Below are positions 5,119-24,795 of a stretch of 35,629 nucleotides of DNA, piece after piece. Origin of the DNA: Dermatophilaceae bacterium (lineage in GTDB: Bacteria > Actinomycetota > Actinomycetes > Actinomycetales > Dermatophilaceae); the NCBI GenBank assembly GCA_051650465.1, contig JBOFJB010000371.1, positions 1-35,629 of the forward strand. The letters are read 5' to 3'. The notes beneath the pieces are model-generated. The model did no database searches. It saw only the letters and a program-made list of their open reading frames with translations, and had not been told where the DNA came from. The translations under genes were made by a program, and so were the position numbers. Positions within the stretch are counted from its first letter, which is position 1. Each line of letters begins with the position of its first letter.

Positions 5119-5823
5119 ATGAGCTCGGTGCCGACGCCGCGCGCCGGGTCGTGCGCCTTGCGCCGGGTGGTCGGCACCGAGCCGGTGACACGGGAGCTGT
5201 GGGGACCGGGCGACCCGGCCACGCTGCATCCGGACGAGGCAGCCGTGGTGCGCGCCGCTGTCGACGCGCGCCGGCGCGAGTTCGCCGCCGGTCGGGCCTG
5301 CGCCAGGTCGGCGCTCGAGGCACTGGGCCACCGCGGCATCCCGCTCGTGCCCGGCGCCGCGCGAGAGCCGCAGTGGCCGGCCGGCCTGGTCGGGAGCATC
5401 ACCCACGGTGGCGGCTACTCCGCGGCGGCGGTGGCGTCATCCGACCGCCTGCTCGCCATCGGGATCGACGTGGAGCCCGACGCCCCGCTGCCTGCCGAGC
5501 TCGACGACATCGTGATGACGGATGCCGAGCGGGCCGCGGTCGAGGCGCTCGCGGCACGAGACCCGCAGACGCCATGGAGCCGAATCGTGTTCAGCGCCAA
5601 GGAGTCCGTGTACAAGACGTGGTTCCCCCTGTGTCGGCGGGCCCTCTGGTTCCACCAGGCCACCGTGCATCCGGCCACCGACGGGACGTTCCGGGCACGC
5701 ATCCTCGAGGCGGATGCCGGCTCCTACCCTCGCGAGGTCGCCGGGAGCTGGAGCCGAGCGTCCGGGGTCCTCCTGACGGGAGTCGTGCTCTCCCACCGGG
5801 ACCAAGGCGTCATCCCCGGGTGA
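5119..5823 (+). CDS. 4'-phosphopantetheinyl transferase, EntD/Sfp type
   Basis: GSITHGGGYSAAAV, IGIDVEPD and FSAKESVYKTWFPL are the EntD/PptT-type motifs. The exact start is uncertain. Confidence 0.85.
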   Translation: MSSVPTPRAGSCALRRVVGTEPVTRELWGPGDPATLHPDEAAVVRAAVDARRREFAAGRACARSALEALGHRGIPLVPGAAREPQWPAGLVGSITHGGGYSAAAVASSDRLLAIGIDVEPDAPLPAELDDIVMTDAERAAVEALAARDPQTPWSRIVFSAKESVYKTWFPLCRRALWFHQATVHPATDGTFRARILEADAGSYPREVAGSWSRASGVLLTGVVLSHRDQGVIPG

Positions 5824-5884
5824 CGGGCGTCATCCCTGGGCGAAGGGCGTCATCCCTGGGCGAAGGGCGTCCTCCCCGGGTGGC
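5805..5884. repeat. 20-bp tandem repeat, 4 copies; the first copy is the last codons plus stop of the PPTase gene
   Basis: The four copies are ggcgtcatccccgggtgacg, ggcgtcatccctgggcgaag, ggcgtcatccctgggcgaag and ggcgtcctccccgggtggcc. Confidence 0.9.
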
Positions 5885-5930
5885 CGGCGCCGGTCGCACC
5901 GTGCCGCTGACGACCCCTCGCGGATGCCGC

Positions 5931-7460
5931 TCACTCGCCGGGTCTGGGCGTTCCGGCGAGGTCGACGACCGCCTGCCGGCTCACCTTTCCCGTGGGGGTG
6001 CGTGGGATGCGGGCGACGACGATGCGCACCGGTCGCTCGTAGGGCAGCAGCTCGCGCCGGCAGTGCTCGTGCAGCTCCTCCTCGGACGGCGCACCGCCGG
6101 CCACCGGCTCGACGACGCACACCGGGACGGCCCCGAGCCGAGCGTCGGGCCTGCTGACGACCACGGCCTCGTGCACCGCGGGGTGGTTCTCCAGCTCGTG
6201 CTCCACCCGGTCGGGCGACACGTTGAAGCCGCCCCTGACGATGACCGCGTCGACCCGGCCGAGGACCCAGAGGAACCCGTCGTCGTCCAGCCGGGCCCGA
6301 TCGGCGGTGCGGGTCCAGACCGCGCCCTCCGGCGCCTGTTCGGTGCGCACCTCGAGCACACCGACCGCACCGGGCGCGACGGGGCGACCACCCGCATCGA
6401 CGACCCTGAGCTCGACACCTGCGTGAGCGCGGCCCGCGCTACCGGCCTTCGCCGACCACCAGCTGCGGTACAGCTCCCTCGTCCAGCCGGCGACCGCACC
6501 GGCGAACTCGGTGGCCCCGTAGGTGGTGAGCACCGGCACGCCGTACCGCTCGGTGAACGCGGTCGCGACCGGCGTGGGACAGGCCGCGGCTCCGGTGGTG
6601 ACCAGACTGAGACTCGCCACCTGGTCGACCGGCACCTCGGCGTCGAGGACCGCGGCGATGGCCGCCGGCACCAGGAAGGTCGCCCGGATCCCGTGCGCCG
6701 CGACCGCGCGTGCCCACGCGTGCGGGTCGAACCGAGGCAGCACCACCACGGGACGGCCGCTGCTCAGCCCCCCGAGAAGCGACCACACGCCGGCGATGTG
6801 CTCGATGGGGTGGGAGACCAGCGTGGGCCGGGCGGACGGGCGCGCCTCGAGCTGCTCGCTGGAGCGTAGCGACGCGAGGACCTGGCGGTCGGTCAGCTGG
6901 ATGCGCTTGGGCCGGCCGGTGGTCCCTCCCGACCGGAGCTCGAGGAGCACGTCCGGGCGCACCGGCCCGTCGTGGCTACTGACCCGCGGTCCGGCCCGGC
7001 TGCTCTCCCGAACCACGGCGCGTCCGTCGTCGACCGTCAGCACGGCGTGGCCGTCACCTCCGGCTGCACCGACGAGGGCGGGGTCGCGGCGGGCAGTGTC
7101 GCCGCCGAGCACGACCGCCCGGGGAGCGGCATCGGCGAGTGCGGCGGTGAGCTCGTCGGCGGGCGTCCGAGCGGACAGCAGCAGGACGCACGACCCCCGG
7201 GTCACCGCGGCGAGCAGCGCGACGATCGGGTCGGCCTCGTTCTCCGCGAGCACTGCCACCGGGGATCGCGGCGGAGCCCCGGCATCGGCGAGCGCCCGGT
7301 CGACCGAGGCGGCGGCCTCGCGCAGCCGGGACCAGGTCCACGACCGGGACCCGACCGTGAGCGCCGTGCGCTGCGGGCGCTGGGCGCCGAGTCGATGTGC
7401 GAGCACCGAGACGACGGTCGAGTGTGGTGTCGACGGAACGGCGGCCTGGTCCATAGTCAC
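5931..7460 (-). CDS. Stand-alone adenylate-forming enzyme (acyl/aryl-AMP or CoA ligase)
   Basis: LRSGGTTGRPKRIQLT (EntE/DhbE-like SGGTTGxPK), TTYGATEFAG, RVDAVIVRGGFNVSPDRVE and PRTPTGKVSRQ are present. The start is GTG 7460 or ATG 7454. It is transcribed divergently from the NRPS. Confidence 0.85.
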   Translation of the reverse strand: MTMDQAAVPSTPHSTVVSVLAHRLGAQRPQRTALTVGSRSWTWSRLREAAASVDRALADAGAPPRSPVAVLAENEADPIVALLAAVTRGSCVLLLSARTPADELTAALADAAPRAVVLGGDTARRDPALVGAAGGDGHAVLTVDDGRAVVRESSRAGPRVSSHDGPVRPDVLLELRSGGTTGRPKRIQLTDRQVLASLRSSEQLEARPSARPTLVSHPIEHIAGVWSLLGGLSSGRPVVVLPRFDPHAWARAVAAHGIRATFLVPAAIAAVLDAEVPVDQVASLSLVTTGAAACPTPVATAFTERYGVPVLTTYGATEFAGAVAGWTRELYRSWWSAKAGSAGRAHAGVELRVVDAGGRPVAPGAVGVLEVRTEQAPEGAVWTRTADRARLDDDGFLWVLGRVDAVIVRGGFNVSPDRVEHELENHPAVHEAVVVSRPDARLGAVPVCVVEPVAGGAPSEEELHEHCRRELLPYERPVRIVVARIPRTPTGKVSRQAVVDLAGTPRPGE

Positions 7461-7467
7461 GCGAGTA

Positions 7468-7482
7468 TGATATTCATTATCA
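7468..7482. promoter_or_regulatory. Fur-family 7-1-7 operator candidate in the divergent ligase/NRPS promoter
   Basis: TGATATT-C-ATTATCA matches the classical 7-1-7 Fur box TGATAAT-N-ATTATCA with 1 mismatch in 14 defined positions. The 19-mer gagtatgatattcattatc matches GATAATGATAATCATTATC at 16/19. It lies in the only AT-rich patch of the 54-bp intergenic region and overlaps -10-like hexamers (TATGAT on plus, CATACT on minus). Confidence 0.6.
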
Positions 7483-7514
7483 ACAACGACCTGGTCTCGA
7501 GCCGAGGGGAACGC

Positions 7515-10500
7515 GTGACGAACAGCTCAGTCGATCGCCGTGGTCCAAGCACTGCCACCGGAGCAGGTTCCGGCTCGGCCGTCGCCCTCACCGACCTCCA
7601 GGTCGCCTATCTTCTCGGGCGCCGCCCCGGCCCGGCCCTGGGCGGCATCCGCGCGTGCACCGGAGTCGAGATCCTCGTGCACGACGTCGACGACCGGGCG
7701 CTCGCAGCGTCGTACGCCGCGGTCACGGGGCGCTACGACGTCGTGGGCACCTCGGTCGTCGCCGAGGAGGCCCAGCTGCTGACACCACCCTCGCCACTGC
7801 GGCTGGACCTGGTCGACCTCAGCGGCGCCGAGCCGGCAGCACGCGAGGCCGCGCTCACCCGGGCGAGGGCAGCGCTCGAGGAGGCGCCGGATGCCGCGAT
7901 GCGGGCATCGGCGTACCGGGTCGGCGACGCGGTCCACGTCTTCGTCGTCATCGACCTGGTGCTGCTCGACCTGCCTGGTCTGCAGCAGGTGCTGGACGCG
8001 TGGGCCGCAGAGCTTCGCCGACCTACGCGGAGCCCGGACCCGGGTGCGCTGGGCGGCCTCGGTGACCAGCTGCGTGCCGTCGAGGCCGACACCTCAGGGC
8101 CGGCCGGTGAGCGCGCCCGCCGCCGATGGGAGGACGAGCTCGACACCCTGCCACCCGCGCCGGAGCTGCCGCTGGCCACTGCCCCGGAGTCCCTGGCGGG
8201 GCCGGCCGCACGTCACCTGACCTCGCGCATCTCGGCCGACGTCTGGACGCAGCTGCATGCCACAGCCAGGGCGAACGGCATCGACCCGGAGACGCTGCCG
8301 CTCCTCGCCCTCACCGAGGTCGTGCGCACGTGGTCGAAGGAGCCCGACTTCCGCCTCGCCGTGAGCTCGCGGCACCGCCCACCACCCGCCGACTCCCCGC
8401 CGGCGGCCGGTCAGCTCACCGTTCCCGGCATCGTGTCCGTCCGGGCGGCATCCACGTCCACCCTGCGCGAGCGGGCCGAGGCACTGCAGGAGCAGGCACG
8501 ACGGGCCGCCGACCTGAACGCCTACAGCGGCATCCAGGTGATGCGAGACCTCACCCGGCGACACGGCGGAACGCGCGCGACCGCCCCGGTGGTCCACACC
8601 TCCACTCTGGGTACCGGCGTTCCCGACGGGATCGGCGCCCTGGGCGAGCTGGTCACCCTCTCGACGAGGACCCCCCAGGTGTGGCTGGAGCACCAGGTGG
8701 TGGCGACCGGCGGCGGCCTGACGATCGGCTGGCACACCGTGGACGGCCTGCTCCGTCCCGGCGTCCTCGAGGCGATGGTGTCGGCTCACGACGAGCTCCT
8801 GCGGCGGATGGCGACCGACCCGGCGGTGTGGGACACGGCGGGCCGAGTGGTCGACCTGCCGGCCGACGCGGCCACCGAGCAGGCCGCGGTCAACGACACC
8901 GCGAGCGACATCCCACCGGCGCGGCTGCACGACCTGGTGGCGAACGCCGCCCGGCGTCATCCGAACGCCCCGGCCGTCATCCACGGGGACACCGTGACGA
9001 CGCACGGCACCCTGCACGATCGCGCCCTCCGGCTCGCCGGGCGGATCCAAGCCGTCGCCGCACCGCAGCCCGGCGAGCTGGTGGCCGTGATGCTCGGGGC
9101 CGGCACCGACCAGCTCGTGGCCGTCCTCGCCGTCCTGCACGCCGGCGGCGCCTACGTCGTCGTCGACCCGGCCCTGCCCGCCATCCGCCGTCGCGCGTTG
9201 ATCGAGCGCTGCCAGGTGTCGGTCGTCGTCAGCCGGGCGCAGGACGCGGCGGACACGGTGCCCGACGGCGTCACGGTGGTGCCGCCGACCGCGTCGCCGG
9301 ACCTGCCGACAGACGTGTCGGCGGGCCCGCCAACGGATGTGCCGGGAGCCGAGGACGGCGGCCCGCGGACCCCGGACGACCTGGCCTACGTCATCTTCAC
9401 CTCCGGCTCGACCGGCGAGCCGAAGGGCGTGGCGATCACCCACCGCAGTGCCGCGAACACGGTGCAGGACATCGTGCGCCGCTTCGACGTCACCGAGCGG
9501 GACCGCGTCCTGGCGCTCGCGCCGAGCACGTTCGACCTCTCCGTCTTCGACATCTTCGGCGTGCTCGGAGCCGGCGGGGCCGTCGTCATCCCCGACGCCG
9601 ACCGGGCCGGTGACCCCGACCACTGGGTCGACCTGGTCTCCGACCACGACGTCACGCTGTGGAACACCGTCCCGGCCCCGATGCGGCTGTACGCCGACGC
9701 GCTCGCCCGGCGCGCCGCCGATGGCCCGGTCACCGGGCCGCGCCTCGTGCTGCTCAGCGGCGACTGGATCCCGCTCGACCTGCCCGACCGCGTCCGCGAC
9801 GTGCTGCCGGATGCCGAGGTCGTCTCCCTCGGCGGCGCCACCGAGGGCTCGATCTGGTCCATCTGCCACCGGATCCGCGACGTCGACCCCAGCTGGACCA
9901 GCATCCCCTACGGGCGCGCGCTCGCGAATCAGACGATGCACGTCCTGGACCGATGGCGGCAGCCGTGCCCGACCTGGGTCACCGGCGAGATCCACATCGG
10001 CGGCGCCGGGGTCGCGGCTGGCTACTGGCGCGACGAGACCCGCACGGCCGAGCGCTTCATCCGGTCTCCCCGGACTGGCGCGCGGCTCTACCGCACCGGC
10101 GACCTCGGCCGGTTCCTCCCCGGCGGCGACATCGAGATCCTCGGCCGCGAGGACCTCCAGGTGAAGATCAACGGCTACCGGGTCGAGCTCGGCGAGGTGG
10201 AGGCGTGCCTGGCCGCCCTGCCCGGGGTCGACCAGGTCGTCGTCAGCGCACCGCCCCACCCGGGCACGGGCCAACGACAGGTGATCGCCCACGTCGTGCT
10301 CCGCGAGGACGGTCCCGACGAGGACGGCCCCGACGAGGCGGCGGTGCGGGCAGCAGCCGGGCAGCAGCTGCCCTCGTACATGGTGCCGAGCCGGGTCTTA
10401 CCGGTGCCGGCGGTGCCGCTCACCCCGAACGGCAAGGTCGACCGGGCCGCCCTCCCCGTGCCCTGGGGAGCCGACGAGCCGGCCCGGCCGGAGCCCGCGA

Positions 10501-10739
10501 GCCCCGTCGAGTCCGCGCTGCGGCAGATCTGGGTCGCCCAGCTCGGACACGACGAGTTCGGCACCGCCGACGGCTTCTTCGACGCGGGCGGCGACTCGCT
10601 GCACGCGGTCGGCATCCTGCGGGAGCTGCGCGAGCGGCTCTCGCTCTCCCCCGACCTGGAGCCGGACCTCGCCGAGGCGCTGTTCACGAACAGCGACATC
10701 GCCGGACTCGCCGAGATCATCGAGCGGGATGCCGCGTGA
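7515..10739 (+). CDS. Single-module NRPS, Cy-A-T (heterocyclization, Cys-type adenylation, thiolation); HlmE-like
   Basis: Cy motifs: LTDLQVAYLLGR, DLVLLDLPG (DxxxxD in place of HHxxxDG), LPPAPELP, TPQVWLEHQ. A motifs: LAYVIFTSGSTGEPKG, SLGGATEGSIWS, YRTGDLGRF, GREDLQVKINGYRVELGEVE, PLTPNGKVDR. T motif: FFDAGGDSLHAV. The specificity positions read by motif register give D-L-F-N-L-S-L-I-W-K, against the Cys code DLYNLSLIWK. The start is GTG 7515 after GAGGGGA. The track extension to 6972 overlaps the ligase gene. Confidence 0.9.
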   Translation: MTNSSVDRRGPSTATGAGSGSAVALTDLQVAYLLGRRPGPALGGIRACTGVEILVHDVDDRALAASYAAVTGRYDVVGTSVVAEEAQLLTPPSPLRLDLVDLSGAEPAAREAALTRARAALEEAPDAAMRASAYRVGDAVHVFVVIDLVLLDLPGLQQVLDAWAAELRRPTRSPDPGALGGLGDQLRAVEADTSGPAGERARRRWEDELDTLPPAPELPLATAPESLAGPAARHLTSRISADVWTQLHATARANGIDPETLPLLALTEVVRTWSKEPDFRLAVSSRHRPPPADSPPAAGQLTVPGIVSVRAASTSTLRERAEALQEQARRAADLNAYSGIQVMRDLTRRHGGTRATAPVVHTSTLGTGVPDGIGALGELVTLSTRTPQVWLEHQVVATGGGLTIGWHTVDGLLRPGVLEAMVSAHDELLRRMATDPAVWDTAGRVVDLPADAATEQAAVNDTASDIPPARLHDLVANAARRHPNAPAVIHGDTVTTHGTLHDRALRLAGRIQAVAAPQPGELVAVMLGAGTDQLVAVLAVLHAGGAYVVVDPALPAIRRRALIERCQVSVVVSRAQDAADTVPDGVTVVPPTASPDLPTDVSAGPPTDVPGAEDGGPRTPDDLAYVIFTSGSTGEPKGVAITHRSAANTVQDIVRRFDVTERDRVLALAPSTFDLSVFDIFGVLGAGGAVVIPDADRAGDPDHWVDLVSDHDVTLWNTVPAPMRLYADALARRAADGPVTGPRLVLLSGDWIPLDLPDRVRDVLPDAEVVSLGGATEGSIWSICHRIRDVDPSWTSIPYGRALANQTMHVLDRWRQPCPTWVTGEIHIGGAGVAAGYWRDETRTAERFIRSPRTGARLYRTGDLGRFLPGGDIEILGREDLQVKINGYRVELGEVEACLAALPGVDQVVVSAPPHPGTGQRQVIAHVVLREDGPDEDGPDEAAVRAAAGQQLPSYMVPSRVLPVPAVPLTPNGKVDRAALPVPWGADEPARPEPASPVESALRQIWVAQLGHDEFGTADGFFDAGGDSLHAVGILRELRERLSLSPDLEPDLAEALFTNSDIAGLAEIIERDAA

Positions 10740-12319
10740 CACGGGCGGGGTACGACCACGTGGTGATCGGCGGCGGGTCCGCGGGGTGCGTGCTGGCGGC
10801 GCGGCTCGCCGAGGCCGGACACGAGGTGCTGCTGCTCGAGAGCGGGCCCGACCGTACCGCCGGCGACCGGCCGGACGATCCGCTCCAGGACGCCTCGCGG
10901 CTCGTGCTCTCAGGCCACAACTGGGACCATCGGGTGAACCTGCACGGTTCGAACCGCTTCGAGCGGCTGGTCGCCGGCGACTCCGACGGGTCGACGGCCG
11001 CCACGGCATCCCGGTCGTCGCGGTCGCCCTACCCGCTCGGCAGGGTGATCGGCGGGTCGTCGGCGGTCAACGGCGCTCTCGCGCTCCGTGCGCTGCCACG
11101 CGACCTCGACCGCTGGGCCGAGCCCAGCGATGGCGCGTGGTCCTGGGACCAGGCCGCGCCGTGGTATGACCGGCTCGACCGGGAGGTGCCGATCACCCGT
11201 CCGGACGTGGCGACCCTGCATCCGGTCGATGCGGCCTTCCTCGCAGCGTGCCGGGCGCGTTCGGTCCCCGAGACCGACCTCAACGCCGGCGACCGCCCGG
11301 ACGGCCGCGGCGTGGGGGCCGCGCCCGGCAACGCCGTGGCCGGCCGTCGCGTCGACGCCGCCACGACGCACCTGCGTCCGGCGCGGTCGTCGCGTTCGCT
11401 CACGGTGCGGGGCGGCGTCCACGTCGACCGGGTCGAGATCCGACGCGGCCGCGTCGCAGGAGTGCGGGCCCTGGGCGCCGACGGCCCGGAGTCGGTCGCG
11501 ACGGGGTCGGTGCTGCTGTGCGCGGGCGCGATCGGCTCGCCCACGGTGCTCCAGCGCAGCGGTATCGGCCATCCGGGGCACCTGAGGCGGCTCGGTATCC
11601 CGGTCGTCGTGGACGCGCCGGCTGTCGGCGCCGACCTGGCCGACCACGTCTCGCTCGTCATCTGGGCCCGCGGCCACGGCGCTCCGGCCCCCCGCGACCG
11701 GTGGCGCGACGTGCTCGCCCGGCTGCCCGGCGGGCACGACCACGAGGTCGACGTGCAGATGGGGACGCTGCACGACGTCGACCCCGCCGCGATCCCCGGC
11801 TTCGCGGGTCGACTGCGCGGTACGGCCTTGCTCGGCATGTCGACGATGCTCATGCGCCCGGTGTCGCGCGGCAGGGTGTTCGTCACCACGCCGGACCCGC
11901 TGGCCCTGCCCGCCGTCGAGCTCGGGCTGCTCACCGAACGCGAGGACCTGAGCCGGCTCGCGGCCGGTGTCGCCACCGCGTGGGAGCTGCTGTGCGAACC
12001 ACCGGTGTCGCGCCAGGTGGCACAGGTGTACTCGTGGTCGGCCGGGATCGTGCAGCGGCCCGAGTCGCTGCGGTCGGCGGTCCGCCACCTCGCCGGCCCG
12101 GGCTGGCACGCGGCCGGGACCGCCGCGATGGGCCGAGTGGTCGACGGATGGTGTCGTGTAGCCGGTGTCGACGGCCTCCGCGTGGTCGACGCCTCGGTGT
12201 TCCCGACCATCCCCAGCACACCGACGAACCTCACCACGATGATGCTCGCCGAGCGGGTGGCCGCCGCGCTGGTCGGCGCATCGACACCCGCCGTCGCTGC
12301 CGGGGCGGTGGCGCGATGA
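10736..12319 (+). CDS. GMC-family FAD oxidoreductase; HlmD-like
   Basis: GYDHVVIGGGSAGCVLAARLAE (the ADP-binding fold), a C-terminal HAAGTAAMG and PTNLTTMMLAE are present. The GTG start overlaps the NRPS stop (GTGA). Confidence 0.9.
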   Translation: MTRAGYDHVVIGGGSAGCVLAARLAEAGHEVLLLESGPDRTAGDRPDDPLQDASRLVLSGHNWDHRVNLHGSNRFERLVAGDSDGSTAATASRSSRSPYPLGRVIGGSSAVNGALALRALPRDLDRWAEPSDGAWSWDQAAPWYDRLDREVPITRPDVATLHPVDAAFLAACRARSVPETDLNAGDRPDGRGVGAAPGNAVAGRRVDAATTHLRPARSSRSLTVRGGVHVDRVEIRRGRVAGVRALGADGPESVATGSVLLCAGAIGSPTVLQRSGIGHPGHLRRLGIPVVVDAPAVGADLADHVSLVIWARGHGAPAPRDRWRDVLARLPGGHDHEVDVQMGTLHDVDPAAIPGFAGRLRGTALLGMSTMLMRPVSRGRVFVTTPDPLALPAVELGLLTEREDLSRLAAGVATAWELLCEPPVSRQVAQVYSWSAGIVQRPESLRSAVRHLAGPGWHAAGTAAMGRVVDGWCRVAGVDGLRVVDASVFPTIPSTPTNLTTMMLAERVAAALVGASTPAVAAGAVAR

Positions 12320-14159: not shown

Positions 14160-14172
14160 CCAGGGCCTCTTC

Positions 14173-14280: not shown

Positions 14281-14315
14281 GCGCTGATCCCGATCCGACC
14301 CAGCAGGAGGACACG

Positions 14316-15691: not shown

Positions 15692-15704
15692 GTGAGGACA
15701 CCGA

Positions 15705-16613: not shown

Positions 16614-17632
16614 CCGGGGCCGACGCCGCCTGGCGGCTGTGGGAGATGAGCGACCTGACCGCGCCGTGGGCGCTGCGGGTCGTGTGCACCCTCGGCGTCG
16701 CCGATCTCGTGGCCGACGGCTGCGACCGGGTGGACGACCTCGCCGAACGGACCGGCACCGACGCCGCCGCCCTGGCCCGGGTGCTGCGCCACCTCGCTGC
16801 GCGAGGCGTGGTCGCCGAGCCGGAACCGGGTCGGTTCTCGCTCACCGAGGCCGGGGAGTGCCTGCGCGACGGCCACCCGAGCCGGATGCGGGAGTGGCTG
16901 AGCACCGACGGCGCGGCCGGCCGCATGGACGAGGTGTACGCGGCGCTGCTGACCAGCGTCCGCACCGGCGAGCCCGCGTACCGCGCGATCCACGGCCGGT
17001 CGTTCTACGACGACCTTCACGCGCAGCCCGCCCTGCAGCGCTCGTTCGACGAGCTGATGCGCGAGGACTCGGTGGACTACGCCCCGATCGTCGAGCAGCA
17101 GGACTGGTCGACCACGCGGCACGTGGTGGATGTCGGCGGCGGCCACGGCGAGCTGCTCGGGCACCTCCTGCGCACCCACGAGCACCTGCGCGGCACGCTC
17201 TTCGAGCTTCCCGGCACGGCCGACGCGGCGCGCGCGCATCTCGCCCCGCTCGGCGACCGTGCCGCCGTCGAGGCAGGCTCGTTCCTCGACGGGGTGCGGC
17301 CGGCCGGAGCCGACGGCTACGTCCTGGCGTCCGTGCTGCACAACTGGAGCGATGCCGACGCGGCCACCATCCTGCGCCGCGTCGCCGAGGCCGCCGCCCC
17401 CGGCGCGCGGGTCCTCGTCGTGGAGAACGTCGTCGACGAGACCACCGACTCCAGGTGGGTCACCCACCTGGACCTGAAGATGCTCGTGCTGCTCGGCGGC
17501 CGCGAGCGCACCGTCGCGGAGTACGAGGCGCTGGGCGAGGCCACCGGGCTGCGCGCGACCGGCGCCACGGCGGTCGCCCGCGGACCGTTCATGCTGCCCA
17601 GCGCGGTGATCGGGTTCACCGCCGGTGGATGA
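16610..17632 (+). CDS. SAM-dependent methyltransferase, COMT/Methyltransf_2 type with N-terminal winged-helix dimerisation domain
   Basis: VVDVGGGHGELL is the SAM motif I, and VLHNWSDADA is the LHDW-type catalytic His segment. There is an ATGA overlap with the upstream flavoenzyme. Confidence 0.85.
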   Translation: MTGADAAWRLWEMSDLTAPWALRVVCTLGVADLVADGCDRVDDLAERTGTDAAALARVLRHLAARGVVAEPEPGRFSLTEAGECLRDGHPSRMREWLSTDGAAGRMDEVYAALLTSVRTGEPAYRAIHGRSFYDDLHAQPALQRSFDELMREDSVDYAPIVEQQDWSTTRHVVDVGGGHGELLGHLLRTHEHLRGTLFELPGTADAARAHLAPLGDRAAVEAGSFLDGVRPAGADGYVLASVLHNWSDADAATILRRVAEAAAPGARVLVVENVVDETTDSRWVTHLDLKMLVLLGGRERTVAEYEALGEATGLRATGATAVARGPFMLPSAVIGFTAGG

Positions 17633-18632
17633 CGCTCCGGCTCGCCCTCGCGCGCCGCGGTGGCTCGGCCCCGTGCTCTCCTTCGCCGCCTCGGCCGTGA
17701 CGCTGACCGTGCTGTGCGTCGTGCTCCCCCGGGTCATGCCGGGCGATCCGCTGTCGGCGCTGTGGACCGAGGGGGCGCGGGAGTACGTGTACGACGACGC
17801 CGAGCGCGCCGCGCTCCGGGCGTCCTACGGTGGCGACCGGCCGCTCGCGCAGCAGGTCGTGGGCGATCTCGGCAGGCTGTTCGGTGGCGACCTCGGCGTG
17901 TCGATCCGATACGACGAGCCGGTCGCGGGTCTGCTCGGCGAGCGGCTGCCCCGCACCGTGCTGCTCGTGGGCTCGGCGATGGTGCTCGGCGTGACCCTCG
18001 GGGCGTCCGGCGGCGCCGTCGCCGGGTGGTGGCGGGGCGGGCCGATCGACCGTTCGGGGCTCGCCGTCGTGACGCTGGTGCGCGCGACGCCGACGTTCTT
18101 CCTCGCGGCCCTGGCGTTGTACGCGTTCGCGGTCCACCTGTCGTGGTTCCCGGTCTCGGGTCACGCGTCGCCGTTCCGCGAGCCGGATGCCGGGCCCCTC
18201 GCGGTCGTGGGCGACCTGCTCCATCACCTGGCGCTACCGGCCGCGGTGCTGGCGGCTACCGTCGCCGCCGGGCAGTTCCTCGTCCTGCGTGCCTCCATGC
18301 TGACCCAGCGTCGGGCCAGGCACCTGCTCGGCGCCCGCGCCCGCGGGGCGAGCGAAGGCCAGGTGCTGCGCCGGCACGCCGCACGAGGGGCCGCCCCGCC
18401 CGGGGTGGCGCTGGCCGGCATCCAGGCGGGTGCCGTGATGACCGGCGCGGTGGTGGTGGAGTCGGTGTTCGCGTACCCGGGGCTCGGTGAGCTGCTGGTC
18501 GATGCCGTCTCCTACCGCGACTACCCGGTGATGCAGGGCGCGTTCCTCACCCTGACGCTGACCGTCCTGGTCGCGAACCTGGCGGCCGACCTCGCGCTGC
18601 GCCGGCTGGACCCCAGGGTCGGGGCGCCGTGA
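17625..18632 (+). CDS. ABC transporter permease, DppB/OppB/NikB type
   Basis: VMPGDPLSALW is at the N-terminus, followed by multiple TM segments and SVFAYPGLGELLVDAV (EAA-region-like). The GTG start overlaps the methyltransferase stop by 8 nt. Confidence 0.85.
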   Translation: MDDAPARPRAPRWLGPVLSFAASAVTLTVLCVVLPRVMPGDPLSALWTEGAREYVYDDAERAALRASYGGDRPLAQQVVGDLGRLFGGDLGVSIRYDEPVAGLLGERLPRTVLLVGSAMVLGVTLGASGGAVAGWWRGGPIDRSGLAVVTLVRATPTFFLAALALYAFAVHLSWFPVSGHASPFREPDAGPLAVVGDLLHHLALPAAVLAATVAAGQFLVLRASMLTQRRARHLLGARARGASEGQVLRRHAARGAAPPGVALAGIQAGAVMTGAVVVESVFAYPGLGELLVDAVSYRDYPVMQGAFLTLTLTVLVANLAADLALRRLDPRVGAP

Positions 18633-19450
18633 GCGTGCGGCTGCGTCCGTGGCTGCCGGCCCTGCCGCTGGTGGTGCTGTCGGTGTGTGCGGTCGGTGCG
18701 CCGTGGCTCGCACCTGCCGACCCGGCCGCACCGATCGGCCCAGCACTGGCCGGCCCGTCGGCCGGACATCCGCTCGGCACGACGTCGATCGGGCAGGACG
18801 TGCTCTCCAGGGTCATGTGGGGCGGCCGGGTCTCGCTCACCGTCGCCGCAGTCGTCGCCGTGGCCTCGGTGTCGGTCGGGACCGTGGCCGGGGCCACCGC
18901 GGGGCTCCTCGACGGGCGCCTCGACACCACGGTGTGCCGTGTCGTCGACACCGTCGTGGCGGTGCCGCGACTGCCGCTGCTGGTCGTGGTGGCGGCGCTC
19001 GCCGGGCCGGGGCCGGTCACCGTCGCGCTCACGCTCGCTGCGCTCACCTGGGCTCCGGTGGCTCGAGTGGTGCGAGGCCAGGCACTCGCGCTGCGCACCG
19101 CCGGCCACGTGGCCGCCGCGCGTGGTCTCGGTGCCGGCCGCAGGCACCTGCTGCGCGTCCACGGTGTGCCCGCGCTGGTGCCGCTGGTCGGTGCGGAAGT
19201 GGCGACGGTCGCCGCCGGAGCCGTGCTCGCCGAGGCCGGGCTGGCGTTCCTCGGTCTCGCCGCCGGCGACACGGTGAGCTGGGGTGGCGACCTGCATCGC
19301 ACCCTCACCGAGCCGGGCGTGCTGCTGACCACGGCGTGGCTGTGGTGGGCCGTACCGACCGGGCTCGCCGTCACGCTGACGATCGGCTCGCTCGTCGCCG
19401 TGGGCGCACGGCTCGGCACCCCGTCCTCCCGCCTGGGGTGGTCGTCGTGA
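18629..19450 (+). CDS. ABC transporter permease, DppC/OppC/NikC type
   Basis: HPLGTTSIGQDVLSRVMWGGRVSL is the typical DppC N-terminal motif. There is a GTGA overlap with the upstream permease. Confidence 0.85.
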   Translation: MSVRLRPWLPALPLVVLSVCAVGAPWLAPADPAAPIGPALAGPSAGHPLGTTSIGQDVLSRVMWGGRVSLTVAAVVAVASVSVGTVAGATAGLLDGRLDTTVCRVVDTVVAVPRLPLLVVVAALAGPGPVTVALTLAALTWAPVARVVRGQALALRTAGHVAAARGLGAGRRHLLRVHGVPALVPLVGAEVATVAAGAVLAEAGLAFLGLAAGDTVSWGGDLHRTLTEPGVLLTTAWLWWAVPTGLAVTLTIGSLVAVGARLGTPSSRLGWSS

Positions 19451-21318
19451 CCGCGCTCCGGGTGCGTGACCTCCACGTCCGGCTCGGTGACCTGCCGGTG
19501 CTGGACGGCGTCGACCTCGACCTCTCCCGCGGCGAGGTCCTCGCGGTGGTCGGCGAGAGCGGCGCCGGCAAGTCGACCCTCGCCCTCGCCCTCGGCGGGT
19601 TGATCGACGACGGCCGGGTGACCGGCAGCATCCGGCTCGCCGACGACGTGGAGCTCGTGGGCGACCCACGGGCCGCGCACGAGGCGCGCGCCGAACGAGT
19701 CGCGGTCGCCCTGCAGGGCGCCCCGTTCGACCCGCTGCTGACCCTCGGTGAGCAGGTCGCCGCACCGTTGCGCCTGCGGCGTGGAGCGAGCCGGCGTGCG
19801 GCGGCCGCGGCCGCCGCCGAGCTCGCCGCCGAGGTGGGCCTGAGTCCGGAGCTGCTGCGGCGGCATCCGCACCAGACGTCCGGCGGCGAGCGCCGCCGCG
19901 CCGCCCTCGCCGCCGCGCTTGCCCTCGACCCGGAGGTGCTGGTCCTCGACGAGCCGACCGCCGGCCTCGACCCGGTCGGTGCGGCCCGGCTGGTCGCGAC
20001 CGTCGAGCGCCTCGCGGAGCACCGCGGCCTGGCCGTGCTGCTGGTCACCCACGCACTGGCCGAGGCGGCGCGGCTGGTTGATCGGGTGGCCGTCCTCTAC
20101 GCCGGCCGGGTGGTCGAGACGGGCGCGAGCCGGGCCGTGCTCGGTGACCCCGCCCACCCGTACACGGCCGCACTCGTCGGCAGCTACCCGGTGCTCACCA
20201 CGACGCGCGACCTGCGCCCGCTGCGCGGGACACCTCCCGACCCGGGCGACCGTCCGTCCGGATGTGCGTTCCACCCACGCTGCCCGCAGGCCGTGAGCCG
20301 GTGCCGCGAAGAGCCGGTCTCGCTCGCCCACGTCGGTGACCGCTCCCTGGCGTGCCACCTCGGCGGGCGGACCATCCGGCTCGACGCCACCCGCCTGACC
20401 GTGACCGCCGGCCGGGGACGCGACCGCCGCACCGTCCTCCACGAGGTGACCCTGCGGGTCCGCGCCGGGGAGGTGGTCGGCGTGGCCGGGCCGTCCGGCA
20501 GCGGAAAGACCACCCTCGCCCGCGCCCTCGCCGGACACCTCGCCCCCGACCGGGGCGAGGTCCGCTGCGACGGTCGCGTGCTCGGCACGGGGTGGTCCCG
20601 TGCCGACCGGGCGCAGCGTCGGCGGGTGCAGCTCGTGGCGCAGGACCCGTGGGAGTCGCTGTCGCCGCTGCGCACCGTGGCCGAGTCGCTGCGCGAGGCC
20701 GTCGACCTGGCCGATCCGCCATCGGCATCACCGACCGCGCCGGGCGAGCCGGGCGAGCCGGGCGAGCCGGGCGTGGCAGCGGGATCGACCGGACGAGCCG
20801 TGGCCGCGTCGCGGGACGCGCGGATCGTGGCGGCACTACGGGATGTCGGCGTCGCCCCGACCGAGCGCGTGCTGCGATCCCGGCCCGATGCGCTCTCCGG
20901 CGGTCAGCTGCAACGGATCTGCGTCGCGCGAGCGCTGCTCGCCGACCCTCTCGTCGTCGTCGCCGACGAGCCGACGAGCATGCTCGACCCCTCCGAGCAG
21001 GCCCGGCTCGCCGTCCTGCTCCGGGAGCGCCAGGCCGAGCTGGGGCTCGCCCTCGTGCTGGTCTCGCACGATCTCGCCCTGCTGCGCAAGGTCGCCGACC
21101 ACCTCGTCGTCCTGGACGACGGCCGGGTCGTCGACGCCGGCCCGACCGAGCGGGTGTGCCGCGAGCCGCGCAGCGAGACGGCCCGGGCGCTGCTCGCGGC
21201 GGCGCCCGCCCTCCCCCTCGCCGACGCCGTCGGCAGGTCGTCGGCACGATCCGCGGCCGACCCGTCGCCGCCGTCCGGCACCCGAGCCTCGTCACCGTCA
21301 TCCGACGCCCGCATCTGA
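19447..21318 (+). CDS. Fused double ATPase of a Dpp/Opp/Nik-type ABC importer (DppD-DppF fusion)
   Basis: There are two cassettes: GESGAGKST / SGGERRR / LVLDEPT and GPSGSGKTT / LSGGQLQR / VVADEPTS. An oligopeptide-type C-terminal segment AHPYTAAL...CAFHPRCPQA lies between them. The GTG start overlaps the permease stop. Confidence 0.9.
   Translation: MTALRVRDLHVRLGDLPVLDGVDLDLSRGEVLAVVGESGAGKSTLALALGGLIDDGRVTGSIRLADDVELVGDPRAAHEARAERVAVALQGAPFDPLLTLGEQVAAPLRLRRGASRRAAAAAAAELAAEVGLSPELLRRHPHQTSGGERRRAALAAALALDPEVLVLDEPTAGLDPVGAARLVATVERLAEHRGLAVLLVTHALAEAARLVDRVAVLYAGRVVETGASRAVLGDPAHPYTAALVGSYPVLTTTRDLRPLRGTPPDPGDRPSGCAFHPRCPQAVSRCREEPVSLAHVGDRSLACHLGGRTIRLDATRLTVTAGRGRDRRTVLHEVTLRVRAGEVVGVAGPSGSGKTTLARALAGHLAPDRGEVRCDGRVLGTGWSRADRAQRRRVQLVAQDPWESLSPLRTVAESLREAVDLADPPSASPTAPGEPGEPGEPGVAAGSTGRAVAASRDARIVAALRDVGVAPTERVLRSRPDALSGGQLQRICVARALLADPLVVVADEPTSMLDPSEQARLAVLLRERQAELGLALVLVSHDLALLRKVADHLVVLDDGRVVDAGPTERVCREPRSETARALLAAAPALPLADAVGRSSARSAADPSPPSGTRASSPSSDARI
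20742..20768 (+). repeat. In-frame 9-bp microsatellite (gggcgagcc x3) encoding PGEPGEPGEPG in a linker of the ATPase
   Basis: Read directly from the sequence. Confidence 0.8.
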
Positions 21319-21341
21319 CCACCACCATGTGAAGGAGCATC

Positions 21342-22997
21342 ATGTCCCGCCCCTCTCCCCTGACCCGACGGTCCACCCTCGGTCTGCTGCTCGCCGCCGG
21401 CGCCGCCCCGGTGCTGGGCGCGTGCTCGAGCGACGACGCCCCCGCGGCGCGTCGTGACGTCGCCCTCCGCCTGCCGGGGCAGGACGCCGGCGTGCCCACG
21501 CCGTTCACCTACCGCGGCGGGGTCGGCTTCACCCAGGCCAGCTACGTCTACGACACGCTGCTGTGGAAGGGCCCCTCCGGCGACTGGGTTCCCTGGCTGG
21601 CCGAGCGCCACGAGCGCGCCGACGACGGCCTCACCCACACCTTCACTCTGCGCGAGGGCGTCACCTGGTCCGACGGCCGGCCGTGCACCGCGGCCGACGT
21701 GGCGTTCACCTTCGAGTACCTGGAGCGCAATCGGACGAAGATCTCGCCGCGGGTGATCTCCGTGCCGCTGCCGGGGCTGGTCACCGCCGTCGGCGCCGTG
21801 GACGACCGCACGGTTCGCTTCACCCTGGCGCGGCCGGACTGGACGTTCGAGCGGTTCACCGCGGCCGGCGGCGTCTTCATCCTCCCCGAGCACGTGTGGT
21901 CGACCATCGCGGACCCCTCGACGGTGACCGACGTGGCCGCTCTCGTGGGTACCGGCCCGTTCCGGATCACCGCGATGGACACGAAGACCTTCGCCTACCG
22001 CTACGAGGCGCGCGACGACTTCTTCCTCGGCCGGCCGGTCGTGCGGACGATCGAGCACCTCCCGGTGGGCGACCCGCTCGCCGCGCTCGCCGCGGGCGAG
22101 GTCGACCAGGCCGGCGGGGTCGGGCCGGGCACCGGGTTGCGCCCGGAGGCGGTCAGGCCCTTCCGGAACGAGGAGTTCGAGATCGTCGAGGCACCACCGG
22201 GGCAGACGGTCACCGCGCTGTACTGGAACATCGCCGCCGGTGGCCCGCTCGCCGACCCGGTGTTCCGGCGGGCGTGCGCGCACGCGATCGACCGGGAGGC
22301 GCTCGTGGAGAAGGCGTTCGGCGGGGCCGGCACACCCGGCAGCCCGGGCCTGATCCCCGAGGGACACCCGATGCACGTCGAGGTCGAGCAGTACGCGTTC
22401 GACCGCTCGCGTGCGGAACGGCTGTTGGATGACGCCGGCTACCGGAGGCGAGGCGGCGGCATCCGAGCCAGCGCCGACGGCACAGCCCTGTCGTTCGAGC
22501 TGCTGCTGAGCAACGCGCAGCAGGACGCCGTCGTCGACCTCGTCGTGGCCGACCTCCGCGCGGTCGGCGTCGAGGTGCGGCCGGCGATGGTCGATCTCGC
22601 GACGTTCGGCGAGCGGCGGATGGCCGGCGACACCCAGCTCTCGGTGAACACCTTCGGTGGGACGGCGACCGACGAGCAGCCCGACGGGATGGGCAAGGTC
22701 TATGCGTCGACGTCCCGCTCGCTGCAGGCCGCGCAGGGCTACCGCAGCGCCGAGTTCGACCGGTTGCACACCCGGCAGCGCGGTCAGCTCGACGAGGCCG
22801 CGCGGGCAGCCACCGCGGCGGAGATGCAGCGCCTGGTCGCGGCCGACCTCCCCGTCCTCTCCCTGGTCTATCCCCCGCTGACCACGATCGTGCGGACCGG
22901 CGAGCTCGACGCCTGGGCCGACACGCCCGGTGGGGTCGGCGGTCTCGTGCCCAGCGTCAACAACAAGGTGACGTTCGTCCGCGGGAGCCGGCAGTGA
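21342..22997 (+). CDS. ABC substrate-binding lipoprotein, family 5 (peptide/nickel/opine-metal type)
   Basis: ATG follows GAAGGAG. There is a twin-arginine-like LTRRSTLGLL, then the lipobox LGAC. The 551-aa body has features typical of family-5 binding proteins. Confidence 0.9.
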   Translation: MSRPSPLTRRSTLGLLLAAGAAPVLGACSSDDAPAARRDVALRLPGQDAGVPTPFTYRGGVGFTQASYVYDTLLWKGPSGDWVPWLAERHERADDGLTHTFTLREGVTWSDGRPCTAADVAFTFEYLERNRTKISPRVISVPLPGLVTAVGAVDDRTVRFTLARPDWTFERFTAAGGVFILPEHVWSTIADPSTVTDVAALVGTGPFRITAMDTKTFAYRYEARDDFFLGRPVVRTIEHLPVGDPLAALAAGEVDQAGGVGPGTGLRPEAVRPFRNEEFEIVEAPPGQTVTALYWNIAAGGPLADPVFRRACAHAIDREALVEKAFGGAGTPGSPGLIPEGHPMHVEVEQYAFDRSRAERLLDDAGYRRRGGGIRASADGTALSFELLLSNAQQDAVVDLVVADLRAVGVEVRPAMVDLATFGERRMAGDTQLSVNTFGGTATDEQPDGMGKVYASTSRSLQAAQGYRSAEFDRLHTRQRGQLDEAARAATAAEMQRLVAADLPVLSLVYPPLTTIVRTGELDAWADTPGGVGGLVPSVNNKVTFVRGSRQ

Positions 22998-23974
22998 CCG
23001 GCGACGCGGGTGCGCCGGCACCGCTCGACACGACGCACCTCGGTGCGCTGGCCCCGCCCGGGTCACTCGTCGACTGGCGGCTCGCGGTCGCGTGGCGCGC
23101 GGCGAGCGAGAGCGACATCCTCGGTGCGCTGCCCGGGACCGTCGAGGATGTCGCCCGTCGGCGCGGTCTCGACCCGGGCGCGGCGCGGGCCGTCGTGCAC
23201 CTGATCGCGGTCTGGGGCCTGGTGACCGTGAACGGCGACGGGGTCGTCACCGCGGGCCCGCACGTGCTCACCCCGGCCGAGTCGGCCGCGCTGGCGCAGC
23301 ACGGCGTGTGGATCCACCGGTGGAGCGCGCTGACCGGCGAGCGGCTGCGGGACCGATCGGCGCCGGTCCCCGACACCTTGTGCCGCCCGACGACCGGCGA
23401 GGGGCTCAGGCTGCTGGCGGCGGCGAGCGCGCGGTCGATCGGGCCGGTCGTGGATGCGTGTCTCGCGGCCGTGCCGTCGGCGCGCACCGCGCTCGACCTC
23501 GGCGGCGGGCACGGCGAGCACTCGCTCGAGCTGGCGCGTCGCGGGCTGGCCGTCACGGTGCAGGACCTGCCGGAGGTGGTCGAGCTCGCCCGCGCCGACG
23601 GCCGTCTCCTCGAGGCCGGGGTCGGGCTGCACGCGCAGGACGCGTTCGACGGCGTTGCGGCCGGCCCGTTCGACCTCGTGCTCTGCTCGACGGTCACCAA
23701 CATGTTCGACGCGGATGCCGTCGTCCGGCTGGTGCGCGGAGCCCGGCCGGCGGTCGCCGCCGGCGGGGCGCTGGTCGTGGTCAGCTACCTGCGCGACCGC
23801 TCACCGGTCAGTGCGGTCTTCGGCGTGCAGATGCTGGTGTCGACGACGGGCGGGGACGCCCACGGCTCGAAGGACTACCGTGCCTGGCTCACCGAGGCGG
23901 GCTACGGGGAGGTGACCTTCCACGACCTGGGGACACCGGCGTTGACCGTCGTCGTCGCGCGCCCGGCGCCGTAG
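22994..23974 (+). CDS. Class I SAM-dependent methyltransferase with N-terminal winged-helix-like domain (second methyltransferase)
   Basis: ALDLGGGHGEHSLELARRG is the SAM motif I and VTVQDLPEVV is the acidic motif II. There is no LHDW-type His. There is a GTGA overlap with the binding-protein stop. Confidence 0.8.
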   Translation: MTGDAGAPAPLDTTHLGALAPPGSLVDWRLAVAWRAASESDILGALPGTVEDVARRRGLDPGAARAVVHLIAVWGLVTVNGDGVVTAGPHVLTPAESAALAQHGVWIHRWSALTGERLRDRSAPVPDTLCRPTTGEGLRLLAAASARSIGPVVDACLAAVPSARTALDLGGGHGEHSLELARRGLAVTVQDLPEVVELARADGRLLEAGVGLHAQDAFDGVAAGPFDLVLCSTVTNMFDADAVVRLVRGARPAVAAGGALVVVSYLRDRSPVSAVFGVQMLVSTTGGDAHGSKDYRAWLTEAGYGEVTFHDLGTPALTVVVARPAP

Positions 23975-24014
23975 CGGGGTCCGCGGGCCGGCCGCCGTCC
24001 GGGCCCCGGCCGCT

Positions 24015-24140
24015 CTCAGCCGTGGCGGGGCTCAGCCGTCCCGGCCGTGGCGGGGCTCAGCCGTCCCGGCCGTGGCGGGGCTCAGCCGTCCCGGCCGCTC
24101 CTGACCGTGGCGGCGCTCAGCCGTCTCGGCCGTAGATCTC
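24015..24140. repeat. 25-bp tandem array (about 4-5 copies, one with a 10-bp insert); the last copy is the stop codon plus last codons of the minus-strand HFCD gene
   Basis: The unit ctcagccgtcccggccgtggcgggg occurs at 24031-24055 and 24056-24080. A variant lies at 24081-24115. The copy starting at 24116 (ctcagccgtctcggccgtag) contains the stop codon and final codons of the HFCD gene. A partial copy lies at 24015-24030. Confidence 0.85.
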
Positions 24141-24698
24141 CCGCAACGCGGCCGTCACAGCCTCGGGCTCGGGCACGGCCGGGTGCGAGACCAGCTCGCC
24201 GGTCGCGACGTCGCGGCTGTCGTGCCACACCGGCTCGACCACGCGGTGGCCGTCGGCGCGCAGCTGGGCCACGTTGCGGGTCACCGCCGGGCTGGTCCAC
24301 ATGTGCGATCCCATGTGCGGCACGAACACCGAGCGGAACGCCGCCGACAGCACGACGGTGGTGAGCCGGTTGGGCGCGGCGCCGGTGGCCACCGCCGAGA
24401 GGGTGTGCGCGGTCGCGGGGAGCACGACGATGGCGTCGTGGTCGGCGGCGAGTCGTGACGGGCGGTCGGTCGGCCAGTCGGCCGGCTGCTCACCCGCGAC
24501 GACGTGCTCGGCCGAGAGCTGGGCCACGTGCGGCGGCAGGAACGTGGTGGCGGTGTGCGTCATCAGGACCGTGTAGGTGCCGCCGAACGCGGCGCGCATC
24601 GCGTCGAGGTAGCGCGGCAGCGAGGAGACGGCGATGGAGCCCGTCGCACCCACGAGGATCCTGGGACGCTCGGGCAGATGAAAATCATTCTCGTTCAC
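24117..24698 (-). CDS. HFCD-family flavoprotein (EpiD/MrsD/CoaC-like cysteine decarboxylase); HlmF-like
   Basis: RILVGATGSIAVSS, VVLPATAHTLSAVATG (PASANT-type motif), FVPHMGSHMW (PxMNxxMW-type motif) and LRADGHRVVEP are present and collinear with MrsD/EpiD. I chose the GTG 24698 start (MNENDFHLPERPRILVG). The track start at 24770 is a TTG and remains possible. Confidence 0.8.
   Translation of the reverse strand: MNENDFHLPERPRILVGATGSIAVSSLPRYLDAMRAAFGGTYTVLMTHTATTFLPPHVAQLSAEHVVAGEQPADWPTDRPSRLAADHDAIVVLPATAHTLSAVATGAAPNRLTTVVLSAAFRSVFVPHMGSHMWTSPAVTRNVAQLRADGHRVVEPVWHDSRDVATGELVSHPAVPEPEAVTAALREIYGRDG
24679..24693. promoter_or_regulatory. Second Fur/Zur-like 7-1-7 candidate overlapping codons 3-7 of the HFCD gene
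   Basis: The plus strand reads TGAAAAT-C-ATTCTCG. The left half is a perfect TGAAAAT, and the right half matches ATTTTCA at 5 of 7. The patch is encoded by four consecutive T-ending codons AAT GAT TTT CAT in a genome that otherwise prefers C-ending synonyms. Confidence 0.4.
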
Positions 24699-24795
24699 GA
24701 GACCATTCTGGGCGGCCGGCCGAGCCGCGGCAACCGCAATGCGCGGGACACCGTCGAGTGACGTCGACAAGCACGTCCGTCGCTACCCTTACGGC

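Follow-up and report, generated by a model that had tools for sequence, protein, structure and literature searches.

An importer-linked dithiolopyrrolone gene cluster with Fur/Zur-like boxes in a Dermatophilaceae bacterium

Organisation of the locus

A complete set of holomycin-type (hlm) enzymes for the synthesis of a dithiolopyrrolone (DTP) had been predicted at 5119-24770 of a stretch of DNA from a Dermatophilaceae bacterium (assembly GCA_051650465.1, contig JBOFJB010000371.1, positions 1 to 35,629 of the forward strand), which was analysed here at its whole length of 35,629 nucleotides and is referred to as the window. Its G+C content of 74% crowds raw lists of open reading frames (ORFs) with shadow ORFs; genes were called from third-position G+C and frame plots, and every product was compared with Pfam and NCBIfam. 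In agreement with the original prediction, all eight hallmark DTP proteins were found with Pfam at or near their predicted positions.

The plus strand carries a mostly overlapping operon of 13 genes that opens with a single-module nonribosomal peptide synthetase (NRPS) of the HlmE/DtpB type (7515-10739), consisting of cyclisation, adenylation and thiolation (Cy-A-T) domains. Downstream lie a GMC-family flavin oxidoreductase (HlmD type; 10736-12319), a type II thioesterase (TE; HlmC type; 12316-13029) and a protein of the acyl-CoA dehydrogenase family (ACAD; HlmB/DtpE type; 13026-14159), all assigned by Pfam and by comparison with classical DTP loci and, except for the TE, by NCBIfam as well. 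These are followed by a GNAT N-acyltransferase (HlmA type, Pfam Acetyltransf_18; 14316-15230), a truncated bacterial globin (HlmG type, Pfam Bac_globin; 15230-15691) and a thioredoxin-reductase-like flavin adenine dinucleotide (FAD) dithiol oxidase with an HCPYCH motif (HlmI type; 15705-16613). The remaining genes encode a PF00891 S-adenosylmethionine (SAM) methyltransferase (OMT; 16610-17632) with a dimerisation domain and LHNW and GGRERT motifs, ABC importer permeases of the OppB/NikB type (17625-18632) and the OppC/NikC type (18629-19450), a fused double ATPase of the OppD/OppF type with 623 residues (19447-21318), a family-5 substrate-binding lipoprotein (SBP; SBP_bac_5) with a Tat-type RR signal and an LGAC lipobox (21342-22997), and a second SAM methyltransferase (MT2; 22994-23974) in which TNMFD stands in place of the usual catalytic His. 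The permeases and the ATPase were assigned by both Pfam and NCBIfam.

The claim that this operon is translationally coupled agrees with the junction sequences, which read in order GTGA, ATGA, ATGA, TGATG (the 1-nt overlap of the GNAT and globin genes), ATGA, an 8-nt overlap and three times GTGA. Three short gaps interrupt the series, of 156 nt between the ACAD and GNAT genes, 13 nt between the globin and HlmI-type genes and 23 nt between the OppDF and SBP genes.

On the minus strand, an HFCD/phosphopantothenoylcysteine-decarboxylase-like flavoprotein gene (HlmF type, Pfam and NCBIfam; 24117-24698) converges on the operon end, as had been proposed. The proposed end at 24770 was not upheld: the start is most likely GTG 24698 and not TTG 24770, since the longer ORF would overlap a divergent MNT nucleotidyltransferase gene at 24739 and since the gene of a close relative (L006, described below) is called from the equivalent of 24698. 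The extra ligase gene that had been claimed is present, encoding an acyl-CoA-ligase-like adenylate-forming enzyme (Pfam AMP-binding and AMP-binding_C; 5931-7454), and its strand is corrected here to minus, divergent from the NRPS gene. Beyond it, on the plus strand, lies the gene for an Sfp/PptT-type 4'-phosphopantetheinyl transferase (PPTase; 5119-5823), which matches Pfam 4PPT_N and ACPS and falls under the cut-off of its PptT/Npt-like NCBIfam profile.

Pfam analysis of the genes called within 5119-24770 revealed no MFS exporter and no LuxR-type or other cluster regulator, Rfam revealed no riboswitch in the cluster, and a scan of 4000-8000 for the sigma-70 consensus gave no promoter. The host context had been described as not obviously Streptomyces-like, which fits the close relationship of the window to a Dermatophilaceae metagenome-assembled genome (MAG), a contig of which (L005) is 95-98.6% identical in DNA to window 6524-16601. 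This contig was the sole return of a genome-collection scan with very specific patterns drawn from a two-sequence GNAT alignment.

The dithiolopyrrolone core enzymes

The loci of Actinokineospora terrae (L003) and Streptomyces thioluteus (L008), the latter of which we take to be a thiolutin/aureothricin producer, served as classical DTP references; both were classed as DTP loci by gene content and are proxies for the Hlm sequences. Along with the hlm cluster of S. clavuligerus and the dtp cluster of Saccharothrix algeriensis, they have the same Cy-A-T NRPS, GMC, TE, ACAD, GNAT, globin, HlmI and HFCD proteins as the window, and the core order NRPS-GMC-TE-ACAD-(GNAT)-globin is common to all. Protein identities to L003 and L008 are 62% for HFCD, 61-62% for ACAD, 59-61% for the globin (61% to S. 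thioluteus), 55-57% for the HlmI-type protein, 48% for the NRPS, 46% for the GNAT (to S. thioluteus), 40-45% for GMC and 35-39% for the TE. The proposed likeness to the hlm cluster is supported by a homologue for each hallmark function, in classical gene order and at 35-62% identity. These values lie essentially within the range seen among the S. clavuligerus, Yersinia and Pseudoalteromonas DTP proteins (36-72%; PMC3826145, a 2013 review) and are therefore ordinary for orthologues of the DTP family.

The nearest database relatives of the NRPS are actinomycete Cy-A-T proteins of 1070-1145 residues. Exact-sequence look-ups with the window ACAD and with the closest NRPS homologue, from Phytoactinopolyspora, gave no match. 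Its predicted A and T domains were recognised by Pfam; the Cy domain was missed, with no Condensation match in the N-terminal 470 residues at E<=0.001, and was recovered by alignment along the full length of this region with DTP-type Cy domains and by its DxxxxD motif, DLVLLD. The A-domain code DLFNLSLIWK was reproduced by mapping the ten specificity positions via conserved core motifs rather than by a formal GrsA alignment, and corresponds to the Cys code with Y239F, the classical DTP NRPSs reading DLYNLSLIWK. The same change occurs in Natronosporangium hydrolyticum (L001) and in L007, which like L012 and L013 is a contig assembled from public sequencing runs. Y239F was considered as a subfamily signature and rejected, since L012 and L013 keep the canonical Y.

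Divergence of the Cy domain extends to other loci with this gene set, as the Pfam Condensation model fails on L007 and L013 as well as on the window (Cy region, 7515-8930), and alignment of the first ~200 NRPS residues is poor in L012 and L013, where the called genes are ~100 residues shorter. Together with the code position that differs in three lineages, this would be compatible with a pathway that the extra ligase and methyltransferases redirect to some other Cys-derived thiol compound and not to a bicyclic DTP. We consider such a redirection very unlikely, given eight core enzymes including HlmI in classical order, the canonical Y in L012 and L013, and the reported ability of the DtpB A domain itself to form the Cys-Cys bond (PMC10134970).

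The best solved relative of the CPYC flavoenzyme is PDB entry 4NTD (E 3e-89), compared with 6e-46 for DepH and 3e-21 for GliT. We take 4NTD to be HlmI from its place in the deposition series 4NTC (GliT, confirmed), 4NTD and 4NTE (DepH). HlmI-like proteins are very numerous in actinomycetes, also away from DTP clusters, and the DTP assignment is therefore carried by the whole enzyme set and not by HlmI alone. Every feature tested places the locus in the DTP cluster family, with a predicted holothin-core product.

A conserved subfamily and its operator-like boxes

The departures from the Streptomyces paradigm that the original prediction had listed are real. Compared with the hlm and dtp clusters, the window has neither an MFS exporter nor a LuxR-type or other cluster regulator, and adds the ligase, the PPTase, two methyltransferases (the in-operon PF00891 enzyme and MT2), an Opp-type importer and Fur/Zur-like operators; its HFCD protein also differs by an operator-carrying N-terminal extension, and its host is Dermatophilaceae-like. 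A 15-gene order consisting of ligase (-), NRPS, GMC, TE, ACAD, GNAT, globin, HlmI, PF00891 methyltransferase, OppB, OppC, OppDF, SBP, MT2 and HFCD (-) is complete in the window, L007, L012 and L013, and in N. hydrolyticum L001 as far as the DNA was examined (to OppDF). Protein identities to the window range from 39 to 76%, and in L007, with a G+C content of 63%, HlmI is just 59% identical. The classical L003 and L008 have no ligase, neither methyltransferase and no importer. On the evidence of gene order and protein sequence, these departures are not a one-off and define a conserved DTP subfamily across five lineages, to which Phytoactinopolyspora mesophila, with the closest NRPS and an SBP at 58% identity on contigs that are equal in length, probably also belongs. 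Together with the boxes discussed below, they mark, as judged from sequence, a new importer-linked, Fur/Zur-boxed type of DTP cluster in several actinobacterial lineages, extending DTP clusters to a Dermatophilaceae-like host. In the literature that we searched, with incomplete coverage, neither an importer-linked DTP cluster nor a DTP that serves its producer as a metallophore is described.

The ligase is found in all five full clusters, with 46-50% identity in L001, L007, L012 and L013, and its best PDB matches are oxalyl-CoA and fatty-acyl-CoA ligases. In L012 a PPTase homologue (37% identity) also lies beside it. No extra carrier protein is present in the locus, and the simplest role that we infer for the ligase would be to supply an acyl-CoA for N-acylation by the GNAT. 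In thiomarinol synthesis a comparable logic of TmlU ligase and HolE acyltransferase was reportedly set out by Dunn et al. in 2015. TmlU works with HolE, a holothin N-acyltransferase (PMC3826145), and the window is alike in pairing an adenylate-forming ligase with a holothin N-acyltransferase, suggestive of an N-acyl group other than acetyl. It differs in that TmlU is SimL/NovL-like, whereas the window ligase is nearest to fatty-acyl/oxalyl-CoA ligases and no polyketide partner is encoded.

The PF00891 methyltransferase is homologous to DtpM (PDB 8RDM; E 1.5e-47), with which it shares the family and a dimerisation domain; it carries a His-Asn dyad motif (LHNW) and is closer in sequence to the aromatic O-methyltransferases NcsB1 and DnrK (E 1e-68 to 1e-60). 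LHNW, which holds the His-Asn pair, and GGRERT are invariant in six subfamily enzymes, as compared by motif and not by residue-by-residue alignment to DtpM. The gene for DtpM, which turns holomycin into thiolutin by N-methylation, lies outside its biosynthetic gene cluster (BGC), whereas the window gene directly follows hlmI; the study of DtpM (PDB 8RDM) warns that sequence similarity is no predictor of DTP methylation and that homologues can be inactive. The enzyme is a candidate for the ring N-methyltransferase, placed here within the cluster and encoded elsewhere in known producers. A metagenome scan with an OMT alignment found no relative. For MT2, solved relatives are weak, and its start overlaps the SBP stop in every locus seen, including loci devoid of biosynthetic genes. 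Combined, these enzymes lead us to predict a probably new DTP that is N-acylated and N- and/or S-methylated.

The 35.6 kb window contains just two AT-rich islands, each of them a 7-1-7 palindrome of the Fur-family type. Box 1, TGATATTCATTATCA, lies at 7468-7482 in the 60-nt divergent gap between the ligase and NRPS genes, and box 2, TGAAAATCATTCTCG, at 24679-24693 over codons 2-7 of the HFCD gene. When up to three mismatches are allowed, they are the sole matches in the window to TGATAAT-N-ATTATCA or TGAAAAT-N-ATTTTCA, and none of 100 shuffles gave two matches; 428 kb of unrelated loci with high G+C content gave a background of ~1 weak match per 43 kb, away from promoters. Relative to TGAAAAT-N-ATTTTCA, box 2 has two mismatches and box 1 three, and box 1 agrees with the classical Fur 19-mer at 16/19 positions, compared with 17/19 for the corresponding box of L007.

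The positions of the boxes are conserved in four lineages, namely the window with L005 and L006, L007, L012 and L013. Box 1 is identical in L005 despite differing adjacent bases, its place is taken by TGCTAATGATATTCATTATCT in L007 and by an inverted repeat, TGAGAA-N9-TTCTCA, in L013, and L012 has TGAGAATCAATCTCA 15 nt upstream of the NRPS start. L006, L007, L012 and L013 likewise have box 2 at the start of the HFCD gene. The N-terminal peptides encoded there differ (VNENDFHL, MNENGFHL, MAIDNGSRL, MADNHSHSQL), which places the constraint on the DNA; the classical HFCD gene of L003 has neither box 2 nor the N-terminal extension. IdeR iron boxes, Nur 6-5-6 sites and ArsR/SmtB 12-2-12 operators were also considered, by eye, and do not fit the boxes. 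Iron sensing in actinomycetes usually falls to IdeR/DtxR proteins. Zur controls metallophore clusters in this group (PMC6103462), and these two considerations make zinc our best guess for the metal that would be sensed. Both boxes also resemble mycobacterial Zur boxes such as AATGAAAATGATTTTCGTT and AATGAAAATGATTATCAT (PMC4298942, Table 2).

The importer, partial loci and possible roles of the product

The importer has a type I architecture, with an extracytoplasmic SBP, two BPD_transp_1 permeases and two ABC ATPase domains. The curated profiles nearest to the SBP are CntA (3e-31) and NikA (6e-31), followed by DppA (5e-20), GsiB (6e-17) and OppA (1e-10), and the permeases are best matched by the profile of a nickel permease, all with scores far under the curated cut-offs. 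The SBP family is small, since 118 of 5.8 billion proteins fall within E<=1e-40, and its members are more conserved between lineages (59-63% identity) than the NRPS (47-54%), the TE (39-45%) and also GMC. The location inside the operon, this conservation relative to NRPS and TE, the small SBP family, its Tat/lipobox signal and CntA and NikA as nearest profiles speak for a link between importer and product. A metagenome scan with an SBP alignment gave 80 importers, most of them distant and none accompanied by DTP genes.

Parts of the cluster also occur apart from the biosynthetic genes. In a second Dermatophilaceae MAG (L006, contig JBOFLG010000138.1), with ~87-89% DNA identity, window 2673-3879 and the tRNA-Ser gene are matched and the segment 4060-13877, holding VapBC, PPTase, ligase, NRPS, GMC, TE and most of ACAD, is missing; the tRNA-Ser gene is followed by 84 nt of unrelated sequence, then by the last 282 nt of ACAD and everything downstream. 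The ten genes from GNAT through HFCD are kept with no stops and with dN/dS of 0.06-0.27, and L006 may represent a non-producer that keeps its uptake and tailoring genes. A Solirubrobacteraceae MAG (L010, 6473-12597) encodes OppB-OppC-OppDF-SBP (SBP 51% identical) and an MT2-like protein (45%), with SBP stop and methyltransferase start overlapping, and has no DTP biosynthetic genes and no box at this module. An Arachnia propionica MAG (L009, 9922-11925) has a stand-alone HlmI-like and MT2-like pair with no biosynthetic genes, downstream of the perfect palindrome TGATACT-C-AGTATCA; the pair resembles a module for resistance to dithiol toxins that a similar switch controls. In L011 (2575-12690), a more distant SBP-family member (42%) is encoded together with permeases and a PF00891 methyltransferase, and genes for a PPTase and for another kind of NRPS set (A-T, C-A) lie alongside, so that the pairing of importer and methyltransferase may be a wider theme.

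Modules devoid of biosynthesis, as in L006, L009 and L010, could mean that importer, MT2 and HlmI serve mainly to pirate or detoxify the dithiol toxins of neighbours and came to be linked to a DTP cluster, under a sensor of metal excess or redox stress (PerR/CatR-like or another Fur-family protein). Fur, PerR and Zur boxes are only a few bases apart, which leaves room for such a sensor. We regard this explanation as unlikely, because the module is translationally coupled within the biosynthetic operon in five lineages, which favours a role with the cell's own product, and because import of a toxin merely for its destruction is hard to rationalise.

We instead posit, tentatively and with slightly less than even confidence, that the locus is a functional DTP cluster of the importer-linked subfamily whose product is a thiolate chelator (metallophore) induced by metal starvation and re-imported. 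When metal, most likely zinc, is scarce, the repressor would leave both operators; when metal is plentiful, both promoters would be shut. Two cysteines would be loaded by the Cy-A-T NRPS and converted to an ene-dithiol pyrrolinone by ACAD, the GMC oxidase, the HFCD decarboxylase and the TE, after which the GNAT would acylate the nitrogen with acyl-CoA from the divergent ligase, the DtpM-like enzyme would methylate the ring nitrogen, and HlmI would close the disulfide so that the product can be handled safely. Once outside the cell, the dithiolate in its reduced form would bind metal, and the complex would return via the lipoprotein SBP and the Opp-type permeases and ATPase, with oxidation by HlmI and/or S-methylation by MT2 releasing the metal and neutralising the ligand. 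On this reading, L006, which lacks the NRPS, and L010, with its importer-MT2 module, would draw on a shared good.

This proposal is consistent with reports that reduced DTPs are potent dithiol zinc chelators (PMC12288471), and there is architectural precedent for it. The opine metallophore operons (staphylopine cnt, pseudopaline), Nik and the Zur-controlled coelibactin and ethylenediamine-disuccinate (EDDS) clusters of actinomycetes combine biosynthesis and an SBP5-dependent Opp-family importer in one metal-regulated operon, and the window is alike in architecture only. In contrast to the opine and polycarboxylate systems, its product would be an NRPS-derived ene-dithiol, a soft thiolate donor. 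The cnt operon, moreover, has the exporter CntE, and the window has nothing like it.

Several observations weigh against a re-imported metallophore. The SBP misses the curated equivalog scores, with 108.5 bits against 800 for CntA and 107.6 against 393 for NikA, and by these profile scores it is related to the CntA/NikA family but not a member. A PDB fold search with its AlphaFold model (mean predicted local distance difference test score, pLDDT, 91.8) ranks DppA, CtaP, AppA, GbpA and NikA nearly equal, and PDB sequence matches likewise fail to separate nickel, peptide, cysteine-associated and glutathione binders. In a survey of BGC transporters, importers of the SBP_bac_5/BPD_transp_1 kind fall outside the siderophore-predictive type and may serve to take up precursors (PMC7849407). 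In air, DTPs are non-chelating disulfides, so that an extracellular dithiolate needs explaining, and no exporter is encoded in the conserved gene set. As to regulation, box 1 has one mismatch to the generic Fur box and is as near to it as to the Zur box, and at the box 1 site Natronosporangium L001 has a different AT-rich element (9900-9965; GCAATATTGC ... CGAAATATTGG), which suggests that another regulator controls the same cluster type there. Lastly, the dN/dS values of L006 reflect purifying selection over the whole divergence and do not date the deletion, which could itself be an artefact of MAG assembly.

The same ambiguity of the SBP bears on the main alternative, which we consider somewhat less probable, namely that this is an ordinary DTP antibiotic cluster whose boxes form a self-protection circuit, in which the cell's own reduced DTP strips zinc and thereby derepresses the sensor, HlmI and the methyltransferases detoxify, and the importer feeds precursors (cystine, Cys-peptides, glutathione or an acyl precursor) into the pathway and does not take the product back. 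Precursor uptake is possible for importers in BGCs (PMC7849407), and the fold neighbours of the SBP include the cysteine-associated CtaP and the glutathione binder GbpA. S-methylation is a backup self-protection in S. clavuligerus (PMC3826145), and the P. aeruginosa dithiol oxidase DnoP is induced by the zinc starvation that gliotoxin or holomycin causes (PMC11317636). As a dithiol oxidase under a zinc-limitation-type switch, DnoP parallels the boxed pair of L009, itself detoxification-like under the same kind of switch, and possibly the window operon. However, DnoP is a DepH-group enzyme whose gene stands alone as a resistance determinant of a non-producer, whereas in the window the switch sites lie at the biosynthetic operon itself and not at resistance genes alone. 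Nor would a small dedicated SBP family be expected for a generic nutrient importer, or one more conserved than the NRPS; the importer is intact in L006 after loss of the NRPS, and the overlap of SBP stop and MT2 start is kept in L010 without any biosynthesis.

The distinction bears on the native role of DTPs, which are studied as antibiotics that, once reduced, deprive target cells of zinc. By linking DTP synthesis to a dedicated importer and Fur/Zur-type operators, the locus makes metal acquisition by the producer a testable alternative. The broader proposition that DTPs, known only as prodrug antibiotics, serve a set of soil and sludge Actinomycetota as thiolate metallophores, most likely zincophores, with a Zur-type switch, dedicated Nik/Cnt-related re-uptake, intracellular release by HlmI and/or MT2 and natural non-producers that retain uptake and release genes alone (L006, L010), seems to us less likely than not.

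The setting of the cluster is island-like. It adjoins a tRNA-Ser(GGA) gene (3950-4038, plus strand) at the left edge of the segment and is flanked by toxin-antitoxin pairs, with PIN/VapC and a CcdA-like antitoxin on the left (4129-4747) and the MNT nucleotidyltransferase and HepT on the right (24739-25430). Three intergenic tandem repeats are present: a perfect 25-nt unit repeated 3.2 times between the convergent MT2 and HFCD genes (24019-24097), a 36-nt unit repeated 2.3 times in the gap between ACAD and GNAT (14173-14255), mostly missing from L005, and a 20-nt unit repeated 3.8 times that begins within the PPTase gene, in its final 18 nt, and extends into the space between this gene and the convergent ligase gene (5806-5880). 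Further to the left, a DsbA-like thioredoxin-fold protein (2348-3124), which is also found upstream in L006, ends in a Gly/Cys-rich tail, GGGCGGGCGGGCCGGVCGSGG, which may be a feature related to metals or thiols in the vicinity of the cluster. Between its gene and a DUF3817 gene lies a small signal recognition particle (SRP) RNA gene on the minus strand (3139-3235; Rfam RF00169, 61.6 bits).

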